From Candidatus Saccharimonadota bacterium (lineage in GTDB: Bacteria; Patescibacteriota; Saccharimonadia; CAILAD01; BJGX01), in assembly GCA_035329105.1 (NCBI GenBank), contig DAOLHK010000002.1:5557-69556 (forward strand): a stretch of DNA of 64,000 nt, read 5' to 3'. The notes under the pieces are model-generated. The model had not been told where the DNA came from and ran no database searches. It saw only the letters and a list, made by a program, of their open reading frames with translations. The position numbers and the translations under genes are program-made. Positions 7,328-59,581 of the stretch are shown in pieces. Every line of letters begins with the position of its first letter. Within the stretch, counting starts at the first letter, position 1.

Positions 7328-7385
7328 TTTGCTAAAATTCATTGCTGTATATATTTATGCCCTTAAAAGAGTTATAATTGTCCAC

Positions 7386-8522
7386 ATGACATTAACAAGT
7401 AAAATTTTTGCTACTATCAATAGAATAATGCCAAAAAGAAATAAGGGAATTGTTCCACCTGAGGCAGAGAAAGAGGTAGGATACATACTAGAAGATATGA
7501 GATCTAAGGTGTTTTTTGGTATTGTATTTTTCATACTTGGGGTCTTGCTTTTTATCACCCTAAGACCATATCTGAGTGCCGTTGTACTAGCTATACTCGT
7601 AGCTGCACTTATCCACCCTATATATGTACGCATGCAACGTAAACTCAAATGGTCGCCAAGAATTATCACTGGCATAATTGTAGTAGTATTATTGTTGATA
7701 GCCATAGGTCTAGTGTTTTTCATCGGTCGTACTCTAGTGCAAGAGGCAATATCATTGAGTAGCTCAATCAATGAATACATCAATAGTGGCCAGGTGGTAG
7801 AATTGCAAAATAAGATACAAGAGTCACTCAAACTCAATGGAGTTGAAGGACAAGATATCGGTAGATTTACTACCTCTATCTTGCAACAGGCTAGCGGACA
7901 ACTTGCAAATTTTGCTGCGGGATTTATTCAGAATAGTTTTGCATTCTTTGTCAGTGTGACTATATTTTTGGCAGGACTAGTGCTTCTAATCCCTCGAATG
8001 AGCAGTATCAAGAAGATGGCTGTAGATATTTCTCCGCTCGGACCAACGATTACTAGAGACTATATTGATAAGACTAGATTGCTACTAAGAGGAGCTGTAG
8101 TGGGGTCATTCTTTATCAGCCTCACAGCGTCTACGCTTATGGGCATTACATTTTGGCTCCTTGGGGTTGAGAATGCAATGTTATTTACTGTACTGGCTTT
8201 CTTCCTGGGCTTTATTCCCTACTTAGGTACTACAATATTTACATTTGGTGCAGCAATAATTTTTGCACTTATGGGTGATTATACTAGTGCAATTATTATA
8301 CTTCTCTTGCAGCTTCTGATCCTAAATCAGCTAGATTTAGTCTTCCGACCGATTTCTATGCCCAAAAAGGTACGCATTCACCCAGCTCTCATGATAATTG
8401 CAGTACTTGCGGGGATAGCGAGTTTTGGTATGATAGGTATAATCTTCGGACCAACTATACTGGTGCTATTTATTAGTTCAATTCAAATATATCAACAAAA
8501 TTACGGCAATGATGTAAGCTAA
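7386..8522 (+). CDS. AI-2E family (PerM/UPF0118) transporter
   Basis: About 8 TM segments and the conserved GFIPYLGTTIF motif region. The track start at 7329 would overlap the terminator, so the true start is uncertain; 7386 and 7428 are alternatives. Confidence 0.6.
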   Translation: MTLTSKIFATINRIMPKRNKGIVPPEAEKEVGYILEDMRSKVFFGIVFFILGVLLFITLRPYLSAVVLAILVAALIHPIYVRMQRKLKWSPRIITGIIVVVLLLIAIGLVFFIGRTLVQEAISLSSSINEYINSGQVVELQNKIQESLKLNGVEGQDIGRFTTSILQQASGQLANFAAGFIQNSFAFFVSVTIFLAGLVLLIPRMSSIKKMAVDISPLGPTITRDYIDKTRLLLRGAVVGSFFISLTASTLMGITFWLLGVENAMLFTVLAFFLGFIPYLGTTIFTFGAAIIFALMGDYTSAIIILLLQLLILNQLDLVFRPISMPKKVRIHPALMIIAVLAGIASFGMIGIIFGPTILVLFISSIQIYQQNYGNDVS

Positions 8523-8542
8523 ATCGCTGCATGATTATGGCC

Positions 8543-9223
8543 TCAGGCTTTGATGCCAAAAACCCCAAATCCTCTTATCAGTAAATAAACACCAAATACT
8601 ATCAGTAGTGATAGCGTAATTTCTCTCATGTGTCGGTTGATAAATAGCTTGAGTGATTTAAGAATAGATTCTGATTTTTTTGGTAGCAAGAGGTAGATTA
8701 CTAGAGGTGTGACAATCATCAGTAGAGTAATTATTATTGATATTAAAAGCAGTAACAACTTTTCTGCAGATTCCAGGCTCGAATCAGCTATATCTTTGAT
8801 AGATGGTACAAAAAGTACCAGGGTAGAGAAGTTGGTAATCATTAGTGCTATTCCTAAACCTACGATTTTACCAAATCCTTCAGTGTGTTTTATATCATCT
8901 TTTACTGGTCTGGTGGTTTTTTGCTTGGGCTTGAGTATTAGATGCACCGCTAGTCCCAACAACACAATGCCTGCTAATAAGTCTATCCAAGAAGTTATGA
9001 TATTGTTCTTGGGCATAATATCTATTTTGGAAAATAAAAATATTCCTGGTATCCCTAAGACTAATAATGGAATTGTAGTACCTATTAGGTATATGAATCC
9101 TCTAGTTCTAGTTTTAGTAGTACTAGTGGCTAGGACTGTAATCATACCTGTAGTAGCTACTGGACTGATAGCTGCACCAAGTAGAAGTGGTAGTATCTGC
9201 AAAAACACTGTGTACATATTCAT
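8543..9223 (-). CDS. integral membrane protein (6 TM; possibly a LysE/Sap-like exporter)
   Basis: 226 aa, hydrophobic, with no diagnostic motif. Confidence 0.4.
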   Translation of the reverse strand: MNMYTVFLQILPLLLGAAISPVATTGMITVLATSTTKTRTRGFIYLIGTTIPLLVLGIPGIFLFSKIDIMPKNNIITSWIDLLAGIVLLGLAVHLILKPKQKTTRPVKDDIKHTEGFGKIVGLGIALMITNFSTLVLFVPSIKDIADSSLESAEKLLLLLISIIITLLMIVTPLVIYLLLPKKSESILKSLKLFINRHMREITLSLLIVFGVYLLIRGFGVFGIKA

Positions 9224-9292
9224 AGTGCTTATAATAACATTTTATTGACAAAAGCTTAAGCTTAATAGGCCATACTTTGCATTTATAAATCA

Positions 9293-9321
9293 TTGACATT
9301 AACGGCATAAGCGTGTATCAT
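9293..9321 (+). promoter_or_regulatory. sigma-70-like promoter (TTGACA - 17 nt - TATCAT)
   Basis: Consensus -35 hexamer at 9293-9298, a 17-nt spacer, and a -10 hexamer at 9316-9321. It points toward the GNAT gene. Confidence 0.45.
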
Positions 9322-9461
9322 ACGATGTGCTATGAATCAAATTAGCCATACAACTCCAAATTCATCAAACCATTATCTTGTACGTAAACAAGGTTGGTTT
9401 ATGTTTGCTATGGCTCATTTGCACTCTCGATAGTTTTTTAATTTTTTATTATACGCAATGA

Positions 9462-9488
9462 GCCTCCGAAACGGAGGCATTTTTGATT
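9462..9488 (+). terminator. intrinsic-terminator-like hairpin inside the GNAT leader (possible attenuator or sRNA 3' end)
   Basis: gcctccg-aaac-cggaggc followed by atttttgatt. Confidence 0.45.
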
Positions 9489-9551
9489 CAAAAAACGCAC
9501 ATTTTACATTGTTGTAAACCTGTTTCTGAGGCTCTTTGGGTGTAATAACCC

Positions 9552-9572
9552 CTAGACAATGACCTTGTCTAG
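9552..9572 (+). promoter_or_regulatory. perfect 8-bp inverted repeat (ctagacaa-N5-ttgtctag), operator-like, 25 nt upstream of the GNAT start
   Basis: The palindrome is visible directly in the sequence. Confidence 0.35.
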
Positions 9573-9596
9573 CCCTCTACAGAAAAGAGTGAGACC

Positions 9597-10262
9597 ATGT
9601 TTGGTTTCCCCATGCGCACCATCACAGATAAGGGTGCTCACATCGTCATGAGGCCTTATCGGCCGGATGAGATGGAGCAAGTTGCAAAACTCATCTCTAG
9701 CTACAGGATAGCTCGTACACTCAGCTTGACCGGCTCACAAACTGTTCAGCAAGAACAGGGCTGGTTCGAGCATATCAGTACATCGCAAGATAGTGTGCAT
9801 TGGGCTATCTGCTGGGCAACTGATGAGCGTGATACGACTGGTATTCCTATCGGCACCTCTGTGCTCGAAAATGTGCGAGGCTTGAGAGCCACAAGCGGAG
9901 TGGTGATTTATGACCCCACCGCTTGGAGCCAAGGTATTGCAACGGCTGCGCATAAAGCTCGTTGTTACTATGCAGACCATGTAATGGGTCTCAATGCTAT
10001 TGATAGCGATGCACTACGCAGTAATCGGGGTAGCATCAATGCACTGTGTCGAGTCGGCTACCAGATCGTAGGCACTCGATACGGCATGCACCACCTGGAT
10101 GGCCATACTGAACACCTCGAGCTACTCTTGTGGGTAAACCCAAATGAACGCAACTGGAACTACTTCTGGGGTGACAGCGATGTTCCTCAAAAGTTCATTG
10201 GTAGCCGTAAGCTCGCTCGCAAGGCTCTTGACTGGGCTGCTGAGAATGTAACGCTTCTGTAG
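9597..10262 (+). CDS. GNAT family N-acetyltransferase (foreign, moderately GC-rich gene)
   Basis: 221 aa. The GNAT motif A region reads WSQGIATAAHKARCYYADHVMGLNAIDSDALRSNRGSINALCRVGYQIVG. GC is visibly higher than the flanks. Confidence 0.7.
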   Translation: MFGFPMRTITDKGAHIVMRPYRPDEMEQVAKLISSYRIARTLSLTGSQTVQQEQGWFEHISTSQDSVHWAICWATDERDTTGIPIGTSVLENVRGLRATSGVVIYDPTAWSQGIATAAHKARCYYADHVMGLNAIDSDALRSNRGSINALCRVGYQIVGTRYGMHHLDGHTEHLELLLWVNPNERNWNYFWGDSDVPQKFIGSRKLARKALDWAAENVTLL

Positions 10263-10394
10263 AGAATTGGCTCTTTGACTTCGGAAATTTCTGAAGTTAA
10301 GGAGCCTTTCTCATATTAATCAATCGCTTAAGAGTCTAGGATTAATGTCATCATATTTTCCAAGAATAATAATACTATTTATATTAATAAAATA

Positions 10395-11069
10395 TTAGAA
10401 ATCTATTAAATCGGGTCTATTGGCTTTGGTCTTTATGATAGCCTGTTCTTTGCGCCATTGATTGATTTGGGCATGGTTACCACTTCTTAATACATCAGGT
10501 ACTTTTTTACCTCTGAAATCTTCAGGTCGAGTGTACTGGGGATATTCTAGTAACCCAGCTGAGAATGACTCGTCTTTATTAGACTGATCATCACCTAGCA
10601 CACCTGGAATGAGTCGTACTACACTATCTACGATAGCCATGGCAGGTATCTCACCACCAGTTAGTACGAAGTCACCCAAAGATATCTCGTGGTCAACAAT
10701 ACTCATTATACGCTCGTCGAATCCTTCATAATGACCACATAGTATTATTAAGCACTCTTCTTTGACTAAGTTTTTTGCCATTGTTTGGTTGTATTTCTTA
10801 CCCCTCGGAGTAGTGATAATGACTTTACTGTTTTTCTCTTTTTTCTGGATTGACTCAACAGCATCAAAGATCGGCTCAGGCTTTAGCACCATCCCAGCAC
10901 CTCCACCATACGGCGTGTCATCCACTGTATTTCTTGGTCCAATGCCAAACTCTCGCAAATCAACCAACTCATACTCAACCAGCTTTTGATCTTGAGCCTT
11001 TGCAAGCATAGACATACCAATCACTGGCCTAAACATGTCCGAAAATAATGTAACTATATAAATTTTCAT
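10395..11069 (-). CDS. trmD: tRNA (guanine37-N1)-methyltransferase
   Basis: N-terminus MKIYIVTLFSDMF, the YGGGAGMVLKPEPI motif, and a SPOUT-class fold. Confidence 0.9.
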   Translation of the reverse strand: MKIYIVTLFSDMFRPVIGMSMLAKAQDQKLVEYELVDLREFGIGPRNTVDDTPYGGGAGMVLKPEPIFDAVESIQKKEKNSKVIITTPRGKKYNQTMAKNLVKEECLIILCGHYEGFDERIMSIVDHEISLGDFVLTGGEIPAMAIVDSVVRLIPGVLGDDQSNKDESFSAGLLEYPQYTRPEDFRGKKVPDVLRSGNHAQINQWRKEQAIIKTKANRPDLIDF

Positions 11070-11108
11070 AAAATTAGCAAACAGAATATGAGGATAAGAT
11101 ACTGTATA

Positions 11109-11537
11109 CTAGATGTCTGTATCTAGATCTTCAATACCTTCCCTGGCCTTTGCTTTGATATCAGCAACTCTGTTGTCAGTATCGTTTTCAGAAGTCTCTT
11201 CTTCACTATCTTCTGATAATTGACTAGATTCATCGTGATCGCTAGGTTCTTTGTTGCTGCTCTCTGAGTGGTTTCTATCCGAACCCTCTGGCTCTGCAAT
11301 CTTGAGATTGTATCGGGCATCGTCTTTCGCGCCAAGTACTCTTAGCAGAGTTCGTATCGACTTCGCTGTAGCACCACCCTTACCAATTATCTTACCCATA
11401 TCGCTTGGATCGACACTCAATTCCAACAATACACCCCTATCGTCTACTGTTCTGGTTATGACAACTTTGTCTGGATTGTCTACTAGTTCTTTGACAACAT
11501 ATTCAACAAATTCTTGATCTTTATGTGTTTCACTCAT
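11109..11537 (-). CDS. KH-domain RNA-binding protein (YlqC/UPF0109 family) with an acidic C-terminal tail
   Basis: IGKGGATAKSIRTLL is a KH GXXG loop. The gene sits in the conserved position between rpsP and trmD. Confidence 0.75.
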   Translation of the reverse strand: MSETHKDQEFVEYVVKELVDNPDKVVITRTVDDRGVLLELSVDPSDMGKIIGKGGATAKSIRTLLRVLGAKDDARYNLKIAEPEGSDRNHSESSNKEPSDHDESSQLSEDSEEETSENDTDNRVADIKAKAREGIEDLDTDI

Positions 11538-25382: not shown

Positions 25383-25459
<77 letters not shown>

Positions 25460-58576: not shown

Positions 58577-58716
58577 TTTTCCCCTCTAAAGTTATTTATA
58601 ATATATACTATACAATAATTGTTATGTTGGCAGCAAGCAAATGTTGAGTAATACCTGATATTGTGATATTATGCTATCTGTTAAACGCCTACAATAGGCC
58701 AATAAACTCAGCTGAT

Positions 58717-58791
58717 GGTCCCATCGTCTAGTGGTTAGGACACCAGGTTTTCATCCTGGCAACAGGGGTTCGACTCCCCTTGGGATCACCA
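58717..58791 (+). tRNA. tRNA-Glu (anticodon TTC), CCA encoded
   Basis: Folds by hand. Acceptor GGTCCCA/TGGGATC. Anticodon loop TTTTCAT. T-loop TTCGACT. Confidence 0.9.
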
Positions 58792-58811
58792 ACTGAGTTT
58801 ATCTACGTTTT

Positions 58812-58888
58812 GGCCCCGTCGTCTAGTGGCCTAGGACATCAGGTTCTCATCCTGAAGATCGCGGGTTCGAATCCCGCCGGGGTCACCA
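58812..58888 (+). tRNA. tRNA-Glu (anticodon CTC), CCA encoded
   Basis: Acceptor GGCCCCG/CGGGGTC. Anticodon loop TTCTCAT. T-loop TTCGAAT. Confidence 0.85.
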
Positions 58889-59005
58889 ATAGGATTTATT
58901 GTTTCACATAGTTATGTCAATAACTATTGATTATTTGTTACAATTGTGCTATTATATAGCCCTTGGTCGCAACCGCGACCTTGTACCCGAATAGAAAGAG
59001 CAATC

Positions 59006-59581
59006 ATGGACCTCAAGAAAGTCCACGGCGTGAACGTCCTCCGGATGTTCATGGACTGGTTCGAAGATGAGTTTTACGAAGAGTTCTACCAGCGCTTCCC
59101 CGACAAGGGGATGACGCTCGTCGTACTCGACTCGGACAACCTCATCGATCTCCAGCAGAACTGGCGCCACCCACAGGGCTTCGAGATGATCGTCGCCCAC
59201 ATCGGCGATGAGGCGATCGCCATCGCCGCGAACGGCACCTACGAGAACGTGAAGGGCAAGTTGCGCTTCGTGCTCCGCACCGGCATGGACTCGGTGATGG
59301 CCGAGACTCGGCAGGACTTCGTGCGACCGGGCGATTTCCCGTGGGAAGGTGCTGGCGAGCACGAGGGCTACATCGGTGGTGTCTCCGGACTCGCCAAGGA
59401 AGAAGACTGGGAGATGTACTGCAAGTGCGTCGACAAGCTCATCGAGCTGCTCAAGAAGGTCATCTCCAGGGCGATGGAGCGAAGCAACCAGCTGCGCAAG
59501 CTCCCCGACTGCCCCCACGGAGCCAAGTACATGTACGCCATCGATGTGTCGGATATGTTCCCCGACTACTCCGCCGCCTGA
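59006..59581 (+). CDS. hypothetical protein encoded by a strongly GC-rich (about 60%) foreign gene
   Basis: 191 aa starting at ATG 59006 (MDLKKVHGVNVLRMFMDWFEDEF...). Third-position G/C codon bias throughout. An intrinsic terminator follows immediately. Confidence 0.6.
   Translation: MDLKKVHGVNVLRMFMDWFEDEFYEEFYQRFPDKGMTLVVLDSDNLIDLQQNWRHPQGFEMIVAHIGDEAIAIAANGTYENVKGKLRFVLRTGMDSVMAETRQDFVRPGDFPWEGAGEHEGYIGGVSGLAKEEDWEMYCKCVDKLIELLKKVISRAMERSNQLRKLPDCPHGAKYMYAIDVSDMFPDYSAA

Follow-up and report, generated by a model that had tools for sequence, protein, structure and literature searches.

Leader-peptide attenuators are classically known from amino-acid operons, with trpL, hisL, pheL and thrL of Escherichia coli as typical representatives. 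The trp attenuation model is summarized in PMC4007540 and PMC4191407. In the bmrB-bmrCD system of Bacillus subtilis, three alternative stem-loops respond to a slowed ribosome, and several ribosome-targeting antibiotics act as inducers (PMC4191407). The toiL upstream open reading frame (uORF) of the E. coli topAI-yjhQP locus senses at least five classes of translation inhibitors via ribosomes that stall at varied positions (PMC12121999). Further antibiotic-inducible leaders, i.e. those of ermC/ermK, cat, cmlA and mefAL/msrDL, have been tabulated (PMC5418344; also PMC10314930), of which ermK, mefAL and msrDL act on transcription termination (PMC5418344, PMC10314930). For Deinococcus deserti, leaderless leader peptides have been predicted, with attenuation proposed as their role (PMC4007540). 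Here, we describe a locus of the Patescibacterium Candidatus Saccharimonadota bacterium, located on a stretch of 64,000 nucleotides of contig DAOLHK010000002.1 that is referred to in its entirety as the window. It comprises a gene for a GNAT acetyltransferase of 221 amino acids (9597-10262) and the upstream leader region, which in our assessment is probably a ribosome-dependent leader-peptide transcription attenuator that would keep the GNAT gene off by default. All positions without a locus label are window coordinates, and features lie on the forward (+) strand unless stated otherwise.

The upstream region had been described in an earlier inspection of the letters alone (the sequence-only reading) as a structured leader of about 270 nt, and RNA folding bears this out: the predicted fold of 9328-9600 amounts to -79.1 kcal/mol, compared with -51.7 ± 4.7 kcal/mol in shuffled sequences (z = -5.8), and the shorter segment 9328-9490 likewise folds far better than its shuffles (z = -5.5). 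The sequence contains predicted counterparts of all constituents of an attenuator, namely a leader open reading frame (ORF), an intrinsic terminator, an antiterminator that shares bases with both of them, and an anti-antiterminator. The first of these constituents had been overlooked by the sequence-only reading. It is located at 9332-9433, comprises 33 codons plus a TAG stop codon, encodes the peptide MNQISHTTPNSSNHYLVRKQGWFMFAMAHLHSR, and has a 3' end capable of pairing with the terminator 5' arm. Its ATG follows 10 nt after the -10 hexamer of a sigma-70-type promoter at 9293-9321 (-35 hexamer TTGACA at 9293-9298, 17-nt spacer, -10 hexamer TATCAT at 9316-9321) that is present exactly where it had been proposed. 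This promoter matches the consensus at 11 of 12 positions and is the top-scoring site of a pattern scan within 8500-11200, in which no promoter-like site was found between the terminator and the GNAT gene. As bare patterns, promoter-like and terminator-like sequences are no commoner in the region than in shuffles (10 versus 7.4 ± 3.3 and 2 versus 1.9 ± 1.3, respectively); the two calls rise above chance because they are conserved in related loci.

These related loci stem from a small and nameless protein family. While a word-indexed search for the GNAT family recovered 7 clusters among 5.8 billion proteins, a full profile search yielded 44 clusters (at 50% identity) with E<1e-30 and 173 below 1e-10, and none of the recovered proteins with source labels bears a name. 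By look-ups and scans, loci were obtained for 16 distinct family members. Fourteen of these, which are 40-74% identical to the window GNAT, have an upstream region of 280-380 nt, and 13 of the leaders are complete. The leader-bearing homologues, all from Patescibacteria, occur in at least five genomic contexts, and the identical GNAT gene is found on NCBI contig DAOLHA010000001.1 as well as in many wastewater-type assemblies; in total, at least 24 assemblies contain it, among them SRR34753049, SRR14932608, SRR31643658 and JGI 3300009873. The leaders fall into three groups, i.e. group A (window, L011, L012/L019, L018, L030/L031), group B (L013, L014, L017, L015/L016, L020/L021, L029) and group C (L022, L023, L024, L033-L035). 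Covariation was counted across 11 leaders of groups A and B, aligned with MAFFT without fitting to any structure. In all 13 complete leaders the order promoter, ORF and terminator is kept while the sequence diverges, and of the 11 related loci whose upstream region is complete, 10 share TTGACA with a 17-nt spacer and a -10-like hexamer, the deviating promoter being that of L029 (TTGATA-17-TAAAAT). Two remoter family members with 39% and 25% identity (upstream regions L032:2310-2476 and L026:2950-3001, respectively) lack both the leader ORF and the terminator; the former has a promoter and one simple hairpin instead, and the latter merely a 51-nt intergenic region. The attenuator is therefore confined to part of the GNAT family. 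Further copies of the leader that would point to a regulon were not found, as an nhmmer search of the window and of each locus with the leader profile returned the expected site alone. At L029:2576-2603, the same profile weakly matches (E = 8e-4) another hairpin of the GAGCCUCC...GGAGG type; terminator stems of the CCUCC/GGAGG kind may be common in these genomes.

All 13 leaders contain, at the same place, an ORF of 30-36 codons that begins with an ATG 6-10 nt past the -10 hexamer. Its frame is open throughout, while the other two frames contain stop codons in 25 of 26 cases; from composition, the chance of an open frame is 0.09-0.28 per sequence, giving a product of 2e-5 over six representatives. 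The distance from a conserved AGC codon in region 1 of the leader (see below) to the codon before GCU in region 2 is 66, 69, 66, 69 or 60 nt, and each insertion or deletion is therefore a multiple of three. In between, the middle of the ORF (codons 9-22) shows just 40-64% nucleotide identity within groups. None of the 13 leaders carries a Shine-Dalgarno sequence in front of the ORF. Since the usual distance between a -10 hexamer and a transcription start would place the first nucleotide of the RNA 0-4 nt before the ATG, the leader mRNA is probably leaderless or nearly so.

The terminal parts of the ORF are engaged in a set of alternative pairings with the downstream RNA. Region 1 (9338-9350, leader codons 3-7) forms the 5' arm of a hairpin that spans the ORF and acts as the predicted anti-antiterminator; it pairs with 9409-9421 over 13 nt at 92% complementarity. 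The core of this 1:2 helix is 95% paired in the alignment, and RNAduplex comparison of the 13 leaders with shuffles gives a mean z of -3.7. Enclosed by it is an inner ORF hairpin at 9367-9400 (AAACCA..UCUUGU-loop-ACAAGG..UGGUUU) that is contained in the minimum free energy and centroid structures; its sequence varies among the relatives, with the pairing retained by other bases in L011 and L012. Region 2 (9409-9422, codons 26-31, AMAHL) can pair either with region 1 or, as antiterminator, with 9455-9464 in region 3. The latter region extends over 9446-9472 and contains, besides the 3' strand of the antiterminator, the terminator 5' arm at 9462-9468; it also provides the 5' arm of a long helix with 9522-9548. 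The antiterminator 2:3 (9412-9422 with 9455-9464) hence shares bases with the ORF end as well as with the terminator 5' arm. Its eight core pairs are 100% paired in 11 sequences, with two compensatory columns, and in RNAduplex comparisons with shuffles its mean z is -2.9 (p<=0.03 in 12 of 13 leaders; p = 0.10 in L033). Group C builds the same helix from wholly different bases (GGAGGUC with GGCCUCC). For 1:2, 2:3 and the long helix of region 3 alike, nearly all of the 13 leaders surpass their shuffles. The intrinsic-terminator-like hairpin 3:4 at 9462-9484, which the sequence-only reading had recognized, consists of GCCUCCG (9462-9468), the loop AAA, CGGAGGC (9472-9478), a single A and U5 (9480-9484); only the loop needs to be corrected, since it had been read as AAAC. 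The stem is 91% paired in the alignment, and at the level of patterns a CCUCC...GGAG(G/U) hairpin with a U run sits 23-32 nt beyond the leader stop codon in 13 of 13 leaders.

Both the energies and the spacing of these elements are of the kind that ribosome-dependent control would demand. Over the 13 leaders, the ORF hairpin amounts to -22 to -39 kcal/mol, the antiterminator to -12 to -24 kcal/mol and the terminator to -9 to -15 kcal/mol, and in every one of them the ORF hairpin exceeds the antiterminator in stability. This order fits the requirement of an attenuator. In each of the 13 leaders, the 3' end of region 2 is found -2 to 9 nt ahead of the leader stop, so a ribosome at the stop codon would cover region 2, and the start of the terminator, 23-32 nt past the stop, would be beyond the reach of the terminating ribosome.

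The following mechanism can thus be proposed. RNA synthesis from the promoter at 9293-9321 would start at or near the ATG at 9332, and the leader ORF would be translated without a Shine-Dalgarno sequence. Three mutually exclusive pairings would then compete, i.e. 1:2 (9338-9350 with 9409-9421), the antiterminator 2:3 (9412-9422 with 9455-9464) and the terminator 3:4 (9462-9468 with 9472-9478, followed by U5). When no ribosome is present, 1:2 would form, leaving region 3 free for the terminator. When the ribosome has already arrived at the leader stop codon, region 2 would be masked, again leaving region 3 free and permitting the terminator. In both cases transcription would end near 9484 and release an RNA of about 155 nt, which may constitute a by-product small RNA. 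A ribosome that is delayed within the first approximately 20 codons would instead cover region 1 and enable formation of 2:3, which precludes the terminator and would lead to read-through into the GNAT gene. In the read-through RNA, region 3 could re-pair with region 5 (9522-9548) to form a 27-nt helix, followed by a hairpin at 9552-9572. The input of such a switch is most likely a general slowing of translation, for example by antibiotics, toxins or other translation stress, and not the shortage of a single amino acid, because the leader peptides lack amino-acid runs and differ greatly among the relatives. Amino-acid sensing of the trp/his/leu/thr type was considered and rejected, as the peptides contain no cognate codon run or enrichment. 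A second small ORF was considered as well, starting from UUG at 9483 behind GGAGG; its frame is broken by a 1-nt deletion in L012 and a 1-nt insertion in L018. What the comparison itself establishes are the sequence elements, their conservation, their covariation and their geometry; where the RNA starts, that the ORF is translated, that transcription ends at the hairpin, which way the switch works and which signal it answers are inferred from them.

Several observations weigh against the attenuator. The terminator stem hardly varies, and the covariation of the antiterminator consists of two columns that largely track the single split between groups A and B, i.e. few independent events. The shuffle control used in the covariation counts takes no account of relatedness. 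Moreover, the transcription start has been placed from the position of the -10 hexamer only, and the 5' untranslated region (5' UTR) of group A would be about 3-4 nt instead of zero. As to the signal, no amino acid is consistently enriched in the leader peptides, the sole recurrent tandem being Thr-Thr in group A, and no arrest motif is recognizable in them, with no shared +x+ motif detected by eye. The conserved N- and C-terminal parts of the peptides coincide with paired RNA segments and hence add no independent support. Finally, the helix between regions 3 and 5 has no place in the classical attenuator model, and its use as a switch of GNAT translation is unsupported: in each of the 13 leaders, forcing or blocking the terminator hairpin leaves the probability that the Shine-Dalgarno and start region is unpaired unchanged.

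This 3:5 helix, with region 5 (9522-9548) as the 3' arm and 9446-9472 as the 5' arm, is the best-supported helix of the leader and the one with the strongest covariation. It extends over 27 nt at 85% complementarity in the window and is 85% paired among the 11 group A and B leaders, with nine pairs changed on both sides. The covariation score of the structure string combining 1:2 and 3:5 is 0.263, compared with 0.135 in shuffles (0 of 500 as high) and 0.03-0.10 in slid controls. The duplex reaches -27 to -35 kcal/mol in 13 of 13 leaders (mean z of -6.6 versus shuffles), and RNAalifold, when left unaided, chooses 3:5 as the consensus. Because region 5 is transcribed at least 45 nt after the terminator, the helix cannot act on termination and is possible only in the read-through RNA. 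There, it may lock or stabilize the read-through mRNA, shield the untranslated 160-nt spacer from Rho or RNases, or serve as a site for RNase III. A further helix, P1, joins UGAAUCAAA at 9333-9341, which overlaps the leader start codon, with UUUGAUUCA at 9482-9490, which overlaps the end of the U-tract (9 of 9 positions complementary). It is paired in 92% of cells in the 11 sequences, with two pairs showing compensatory changes. P1 crosses 3:5 topologically and probably belongs to an alternative fold that contains the terminator hairpin.

Conserved helices of this type could also be expected from a riboswitch or a factor-driven attenuator, in which a small molecule, a tRNA or an RNA-binding protein controls the terminator and the ORF is incidental. 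The very stable fold of the leader (z = -5.8) would agree with such a device, P1 and 3:5 are superfluous to the leader-peptide model, and group A contains well-conserved unpaired stretches, such as AAAAAACGCACAUUUUAC at 9491-9508. Yet, groups A, B and C have no conserved unpaired stretch in common and share only the pairing segments and the promoter, and an Rfam 15 search of 8500-11200 at E<=10 gave chance microRNA and small RNA matches only, far below their gathering scores. The covariance-model search that the sequence-only reading had suggested for the leader hence matched no family even at this permissive threshold, and at the gathering threshold the entire window yields three tRNAs only, all outside the leader. 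In addition, three coincidences would be needed if the ORF were incidental: the frame open in 13 of 13 leaders, the fixed distance of the ATG to the -10 hexamer and the fixed position of the stop codon relative to region 2. We therefore regard a riboswitch or factor-driven device as unlikely. Of the alternative "riboswitch or attenuator" that the sequence-only reading had left standing, the attenuator is retained on account of its conserved ORF, antiterminator and terminator, and the riboswitch, which has neither an Rfam match nor a shared unpaired core, is not.

The promoter, the ORF and the terminator also form a complete small transcription unit, and the locus could conceivably harbor two genes and no switch, i.e. 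an upstream gene for a small RNA or a 33-amino-acid protein, followed by a GNAT gene that is served by constitutive leaky read-through. The small product might then have a function in trans or serve the GNAT as a substrate. Trans functions of terminated attenuator RNAs and of leader peptides have been reported for rnTrpL and peTrpL. However, the peptide is poorly conserved outside the RNA-paired segments and matches no family, with no NCBIfam or Pfam hit for any of the leader peptides at E<=0.01. A compensated 2:3 antiterminator that overlaps both the end of the ORF and the terminator arm would be purposeless without a switch. Furthermore, segments past the terminator co-evolve with the terminator arm and thus tie the small unit to the GNAT mRNA. 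Two independent genes are hence quite unlikely.

Between region 5 and the GNAT gene, the read-through RNA would pass a perfect 8-bp inverted repeat at 9552-9572, which is composed of CTAGACAA (9552-9559), TGACC and TTGTCTAG (9565-9572) and is separated from the GNAT ATG at 9597 by 24 nt. In the sequence-only reading this repeat was held to be operator-like. The palindrome itself is indeed present; its assignment as an operator is at odds with its location about 225 nt past the transcription start and after the terminator, and with the covariation of its half-sites. In the five group A leaders the stem is 97.5% paired, four of eight pairs are compensatory and the sequence is unconserved. A hairpin is found at the equivalent place in all 13 leaders, with unrelated sequence in groups B and C. 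Judged by these patterns, 9552-9572 is an RNA hairpin and not an operator, because its half-sites covary.

The hairpin is followed by the box CUCUACAGAA at 9575-9584, to which the sequence UUCUGUAGAG at 10255-10264, 670 nt downstream and across the GNAT stop codon, is a perfect complement. The extended duplex amounts to -19 to -26 kcal/mol (p<=0.003) in the five group A loci as well as in L022, with no counterpart in group B. This pairing may represent a 5'-3' interaction of the mRNA. Next, a purine-rich stretch at 9585-9593 (AAGAGUGAG) can be read from the sequence as a weak Shine-Dalgarno-like element; groups B and C carry AGGAGG or AAGGAG at the GNAT ribosome-binding site. A small hairpin around the GNAT start codon is predicted at 9587-9607 (GAGACCA-UGUU-UGGUUUC) and similarly in L012 and L020, though not in every leader. 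Past the GNAT stop codon, a long hairpin of 17 pairs at 10269-10306 is kept with differing stem sequences in L011, L018 and L030. It is probably the 3' terminator of the GNAT gene, facing the convergent trmD gene.

With regard to the history of the gene, the sequence-only reading had suggested an island of about 50% GC (guanine plus cytosine) within AT-rich surroundings. The composition was correctly perceived: the GC content of the GNAT gene is 0.511 (51.1%) against a window mean of 0.402 (40.2%; standard deviation 0.04, z = 2.7), making it the second-richest patch after two tRNA genes, and its GC content at third codon positions (GC3) is 0.51 compared with 0.25-0.36 in the window neighbors. 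This compositional anomaly is real. In 10 of 10 leader-bearing loci examined, the GNAT gene exceeds its locus in GC content by 1-13 points, and the third codon positions do likewise. The leader itself has a host-like GC content. The excess may stem from repeated exchange with donors of higher GC content or from selection acting on the gene.

The notion of an island does not extend to recent insertion, of which there is no sign. In five genomes of group A, the GNAT gene is flanked by the SfLAP gene on one side and by the trmD-rpsP cluster on the other, and the L011 protein is 74% identical to that of the window, compared with 68-78% for the neighbors. Owing to this synteny in five genomes and to a divergence of the L011 GNAT that equals that of its neighbors, the gene appears to be a long-standing resident. 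No integrase, tRNA or long flanking repeat borders it. An insertion footprint was rejected, since the sole flanking direct repeat is 9 bp long (GGCTCTTTG at 9530 and 10269), is within chance expectation and is partly contained in region 5. Likewise, a phage origin found no support, as a pattern scan of viral contigs gave 44 matches, none of which fits the leader profile. A search for plasmid-borne relatives gave a sole match of 25% identity in Halocatena. The SfLAP/LysE-like membrane protein is encoded on the reverse (-) strand at 8543-9223, divergent from the leader promoter, and is the conserved upstream neighbor at every group A locus; further upstream, 7329-8522 on the forward strand encodes an AI-2E family transporter. 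The two tRNA genes at 58717-58788 and 58812-58885 constitute the patch of highest GC content (approximately 0.59 around 58,700-59,300), and a third tRNA gene is located at 25383-25456.

The L018 locus offers a view on how the coding region may evolve behind its leader. The proteins encoded next to it, i.e. TrmD, the KH-domain protein, S16 and SfLAP, share 70-79% identity with their window counterparts. The GNAT gene itself (L018:3001-3663) is a mosaic, in which the leader, the last approximately 20 codons and the 3' hairpin are of group A type, while residues 1-200 are nearest to group B (57-66% identity versus 44-48% to group A). This pattern points to a recombination event that replaced the coding region and left the resident leader in place; the ATGTTTGG...CC sequence around the start, which groups A and B have in common, may have served as the crossover site.

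These data also bear on a further explanation, according to which the locus is a recently acquired resistance island under control of a DNA-binding repressor at 9552-9572. It would account for the GC content of the gene (0.511 versus 0.402) and its GC3 (0.51 versus 0.25-0.36 in the neighbors), for the perfect 8-bp inverted repeat and for the recombinant L018 allele. On the other hand, the palindrome is found past the terminator, about 225 nt downstream of the promoter, its half-sites are compensatory and unrelated hairpins take its place in groups B and C. Neither an integrase nor a tRNA or long flanking repeat borders the gene, the same neighbors are found in five genomes with the GNAT of L011 (74%) in the range of its neighbors (68-78%), and the GC content of the leader is host-like. 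Such a repressor-controlled island is thus highly improbable.

The enzyme that would be produced upon read-through begins with MFGFPM, a motif that does not vary within or between groups A and B, and ends in a helical extension. It belongs to PF13302 (Acetyltransf_3; E = 1.1e-13, 52.5 bits versus a cut-off of 25.4). The AlphaFold model displays GNAT topology with a pLDDT (predicted local distance difference test) of 96.7, and a Foldseek search of the PDB returned generic GNATs only (E 1e-9 to 1e-12, query TM-score 0.58-0.70, identity 10-20%), including a lasso-peptide acetyltransferase, SpeG, YdaF, AAC(6')-Im/Ie and RimJ. The highest query TM-score was obtained for RimJ of M. smegmatis with 0.69-0.70 over 223-231 alignment columns. 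The likeness to the AAC(6')-Im and AAC(6')-Ie structures is no better than that to SpeG or RimJ. On the sequence level, the best match in the PDB has E = 0.003, and the searches fall well short of every named family; for AAC(6')-I (NCBIfam NF033151), the score is 23.9 bits versus a cut-off of 400. The idea of a resistance or detoxification determinant, put forward in the sequence-only reading, is still a guess, with matches to named enzymes far below the family cut-offs. A search with PADLOC for anti-phage defense gave no match for three family members. Taken together, the window family shares the fold of the RimJ/RimL/YdaF, SpeG and AAC(6') GNATs, from which it differs by its own conserved MFG N-terminus and its C-terminal extension. 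An enzyme acting on antibiotics, polyamines, aminoacyl-nucleotides or ribosomal proteins would in each case be compatible with a switch linked to translation.

Patescibacteria are mostly uncultured episymbionts with reduced genomes. To our knowledge, very little is known about gene regulation in these organisms (also termed Candidate Phyla Radiation), and no attenuator or leader peptide from Patescibacteria was found in the literature searched. If the attenuator proposed here is real, its conservation across lineages would show that transcription-translation coupling is used for regulation in Patescibacteria, and it might also show translation of leaderless mRNAs in this group. In addition, since the state of the ribosome seems to govern its expression, the GNAT gene is a specific candidate for encoding a novel enzyme of resistance or ribosome modification. 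The 3:5 helix represents a defined puzzle with regard to the fate of attenuator RNAs past read-through, on which the textbook model is silent. A more far-reaching interpretation can be offered tentatively: the locus might be an undescribed, Patescibacteria-specific sensor of translation stress that answers to any slowing of the ribosome, for instance by antibiotics released by the host or by neighboring bacteria. It would combine a leaderless uORF attenuator with a second layer that has no precedent, namely the 27-nt refolding of the terminator arm onto RNA further downstream and, in group A, pairing between the 5' UTR and the 3' end, and its output would be a fast-evolving GNAT, exchanged through recombination, from a new antibiotic-, toxin- or ribosome-modifying family. 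We consider this full combination possible, but on the whole doubtful.

In comparison with the known systems, the window element resembles the trpL type in possessing a leader ORF and the segments 1:2, 2:3 and 3:4, with 3:4 as intrinsic terminator, and in the predicted logic by which segment 2 is hidden under a ribosome that has reached the stop codon and is set free by an early stall. Unlike trpL, it has no cognate codon run, and its longer ORF of 30-36 codons makes up the entire 1:2 hairpin. Other differences are the missing Shine-Dalgarno sequence with a probably leaderless mRNA, the control of a GNAT instead of a biosynthetic operon, and the conserved fifth segment that would pair with segment 3 after read-through. 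With its set of anti-antiterminator, antiterminator and terminator and without a specific codon run, the element is closer in logic to bmrB than to trpL. In bmrB, however, the terminator is located inside the leader ORF, the 5' UTR is an ordinary one and an ABC transporter is controlled; a response to antibiotics is known only for bmrB. The toiL uORF likewise is a sensory uORF without a single arrest motif in which stalling alters the downstream RNA pairing, as is proposed for the window element. Yet, toiL unmasks a ribosome-binding site and thereby prevents Rho-dependent termination, whereas the switch in the window would be an intrinsic terminator and the calculated accessibility of the GNAT ribosome-binding site is unchanged.

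The erm, cat, cmlA, mefAL and msrDL leaders comprise an ORF in front of a drug-modifying or protective gene and a stalled ribosome that redirects RNA folding, and the proposed arrangement of the window element is similar. They differ in their short peptides and defined arrest motifs such as +x+, none of which is recognizable in the window, and the window GNAT is not a known resistance enzyme. As in D. deserti, the leader ORF would begin at or beside the 5' end of the transcript, whereas the D. deserti peptides have a high content of the cognate amino acid, are found ahead of tRNA-synthetase or biosynthesis genes and belong to another phylum. Hence, the control principle itself is known, and what is new at this locus is best described as a putatively leaderless ORF and an extra refolding helix within a predicted leader-peptide attenuator that precedes an uncharacterized GNAT family of the Patescibacteria.

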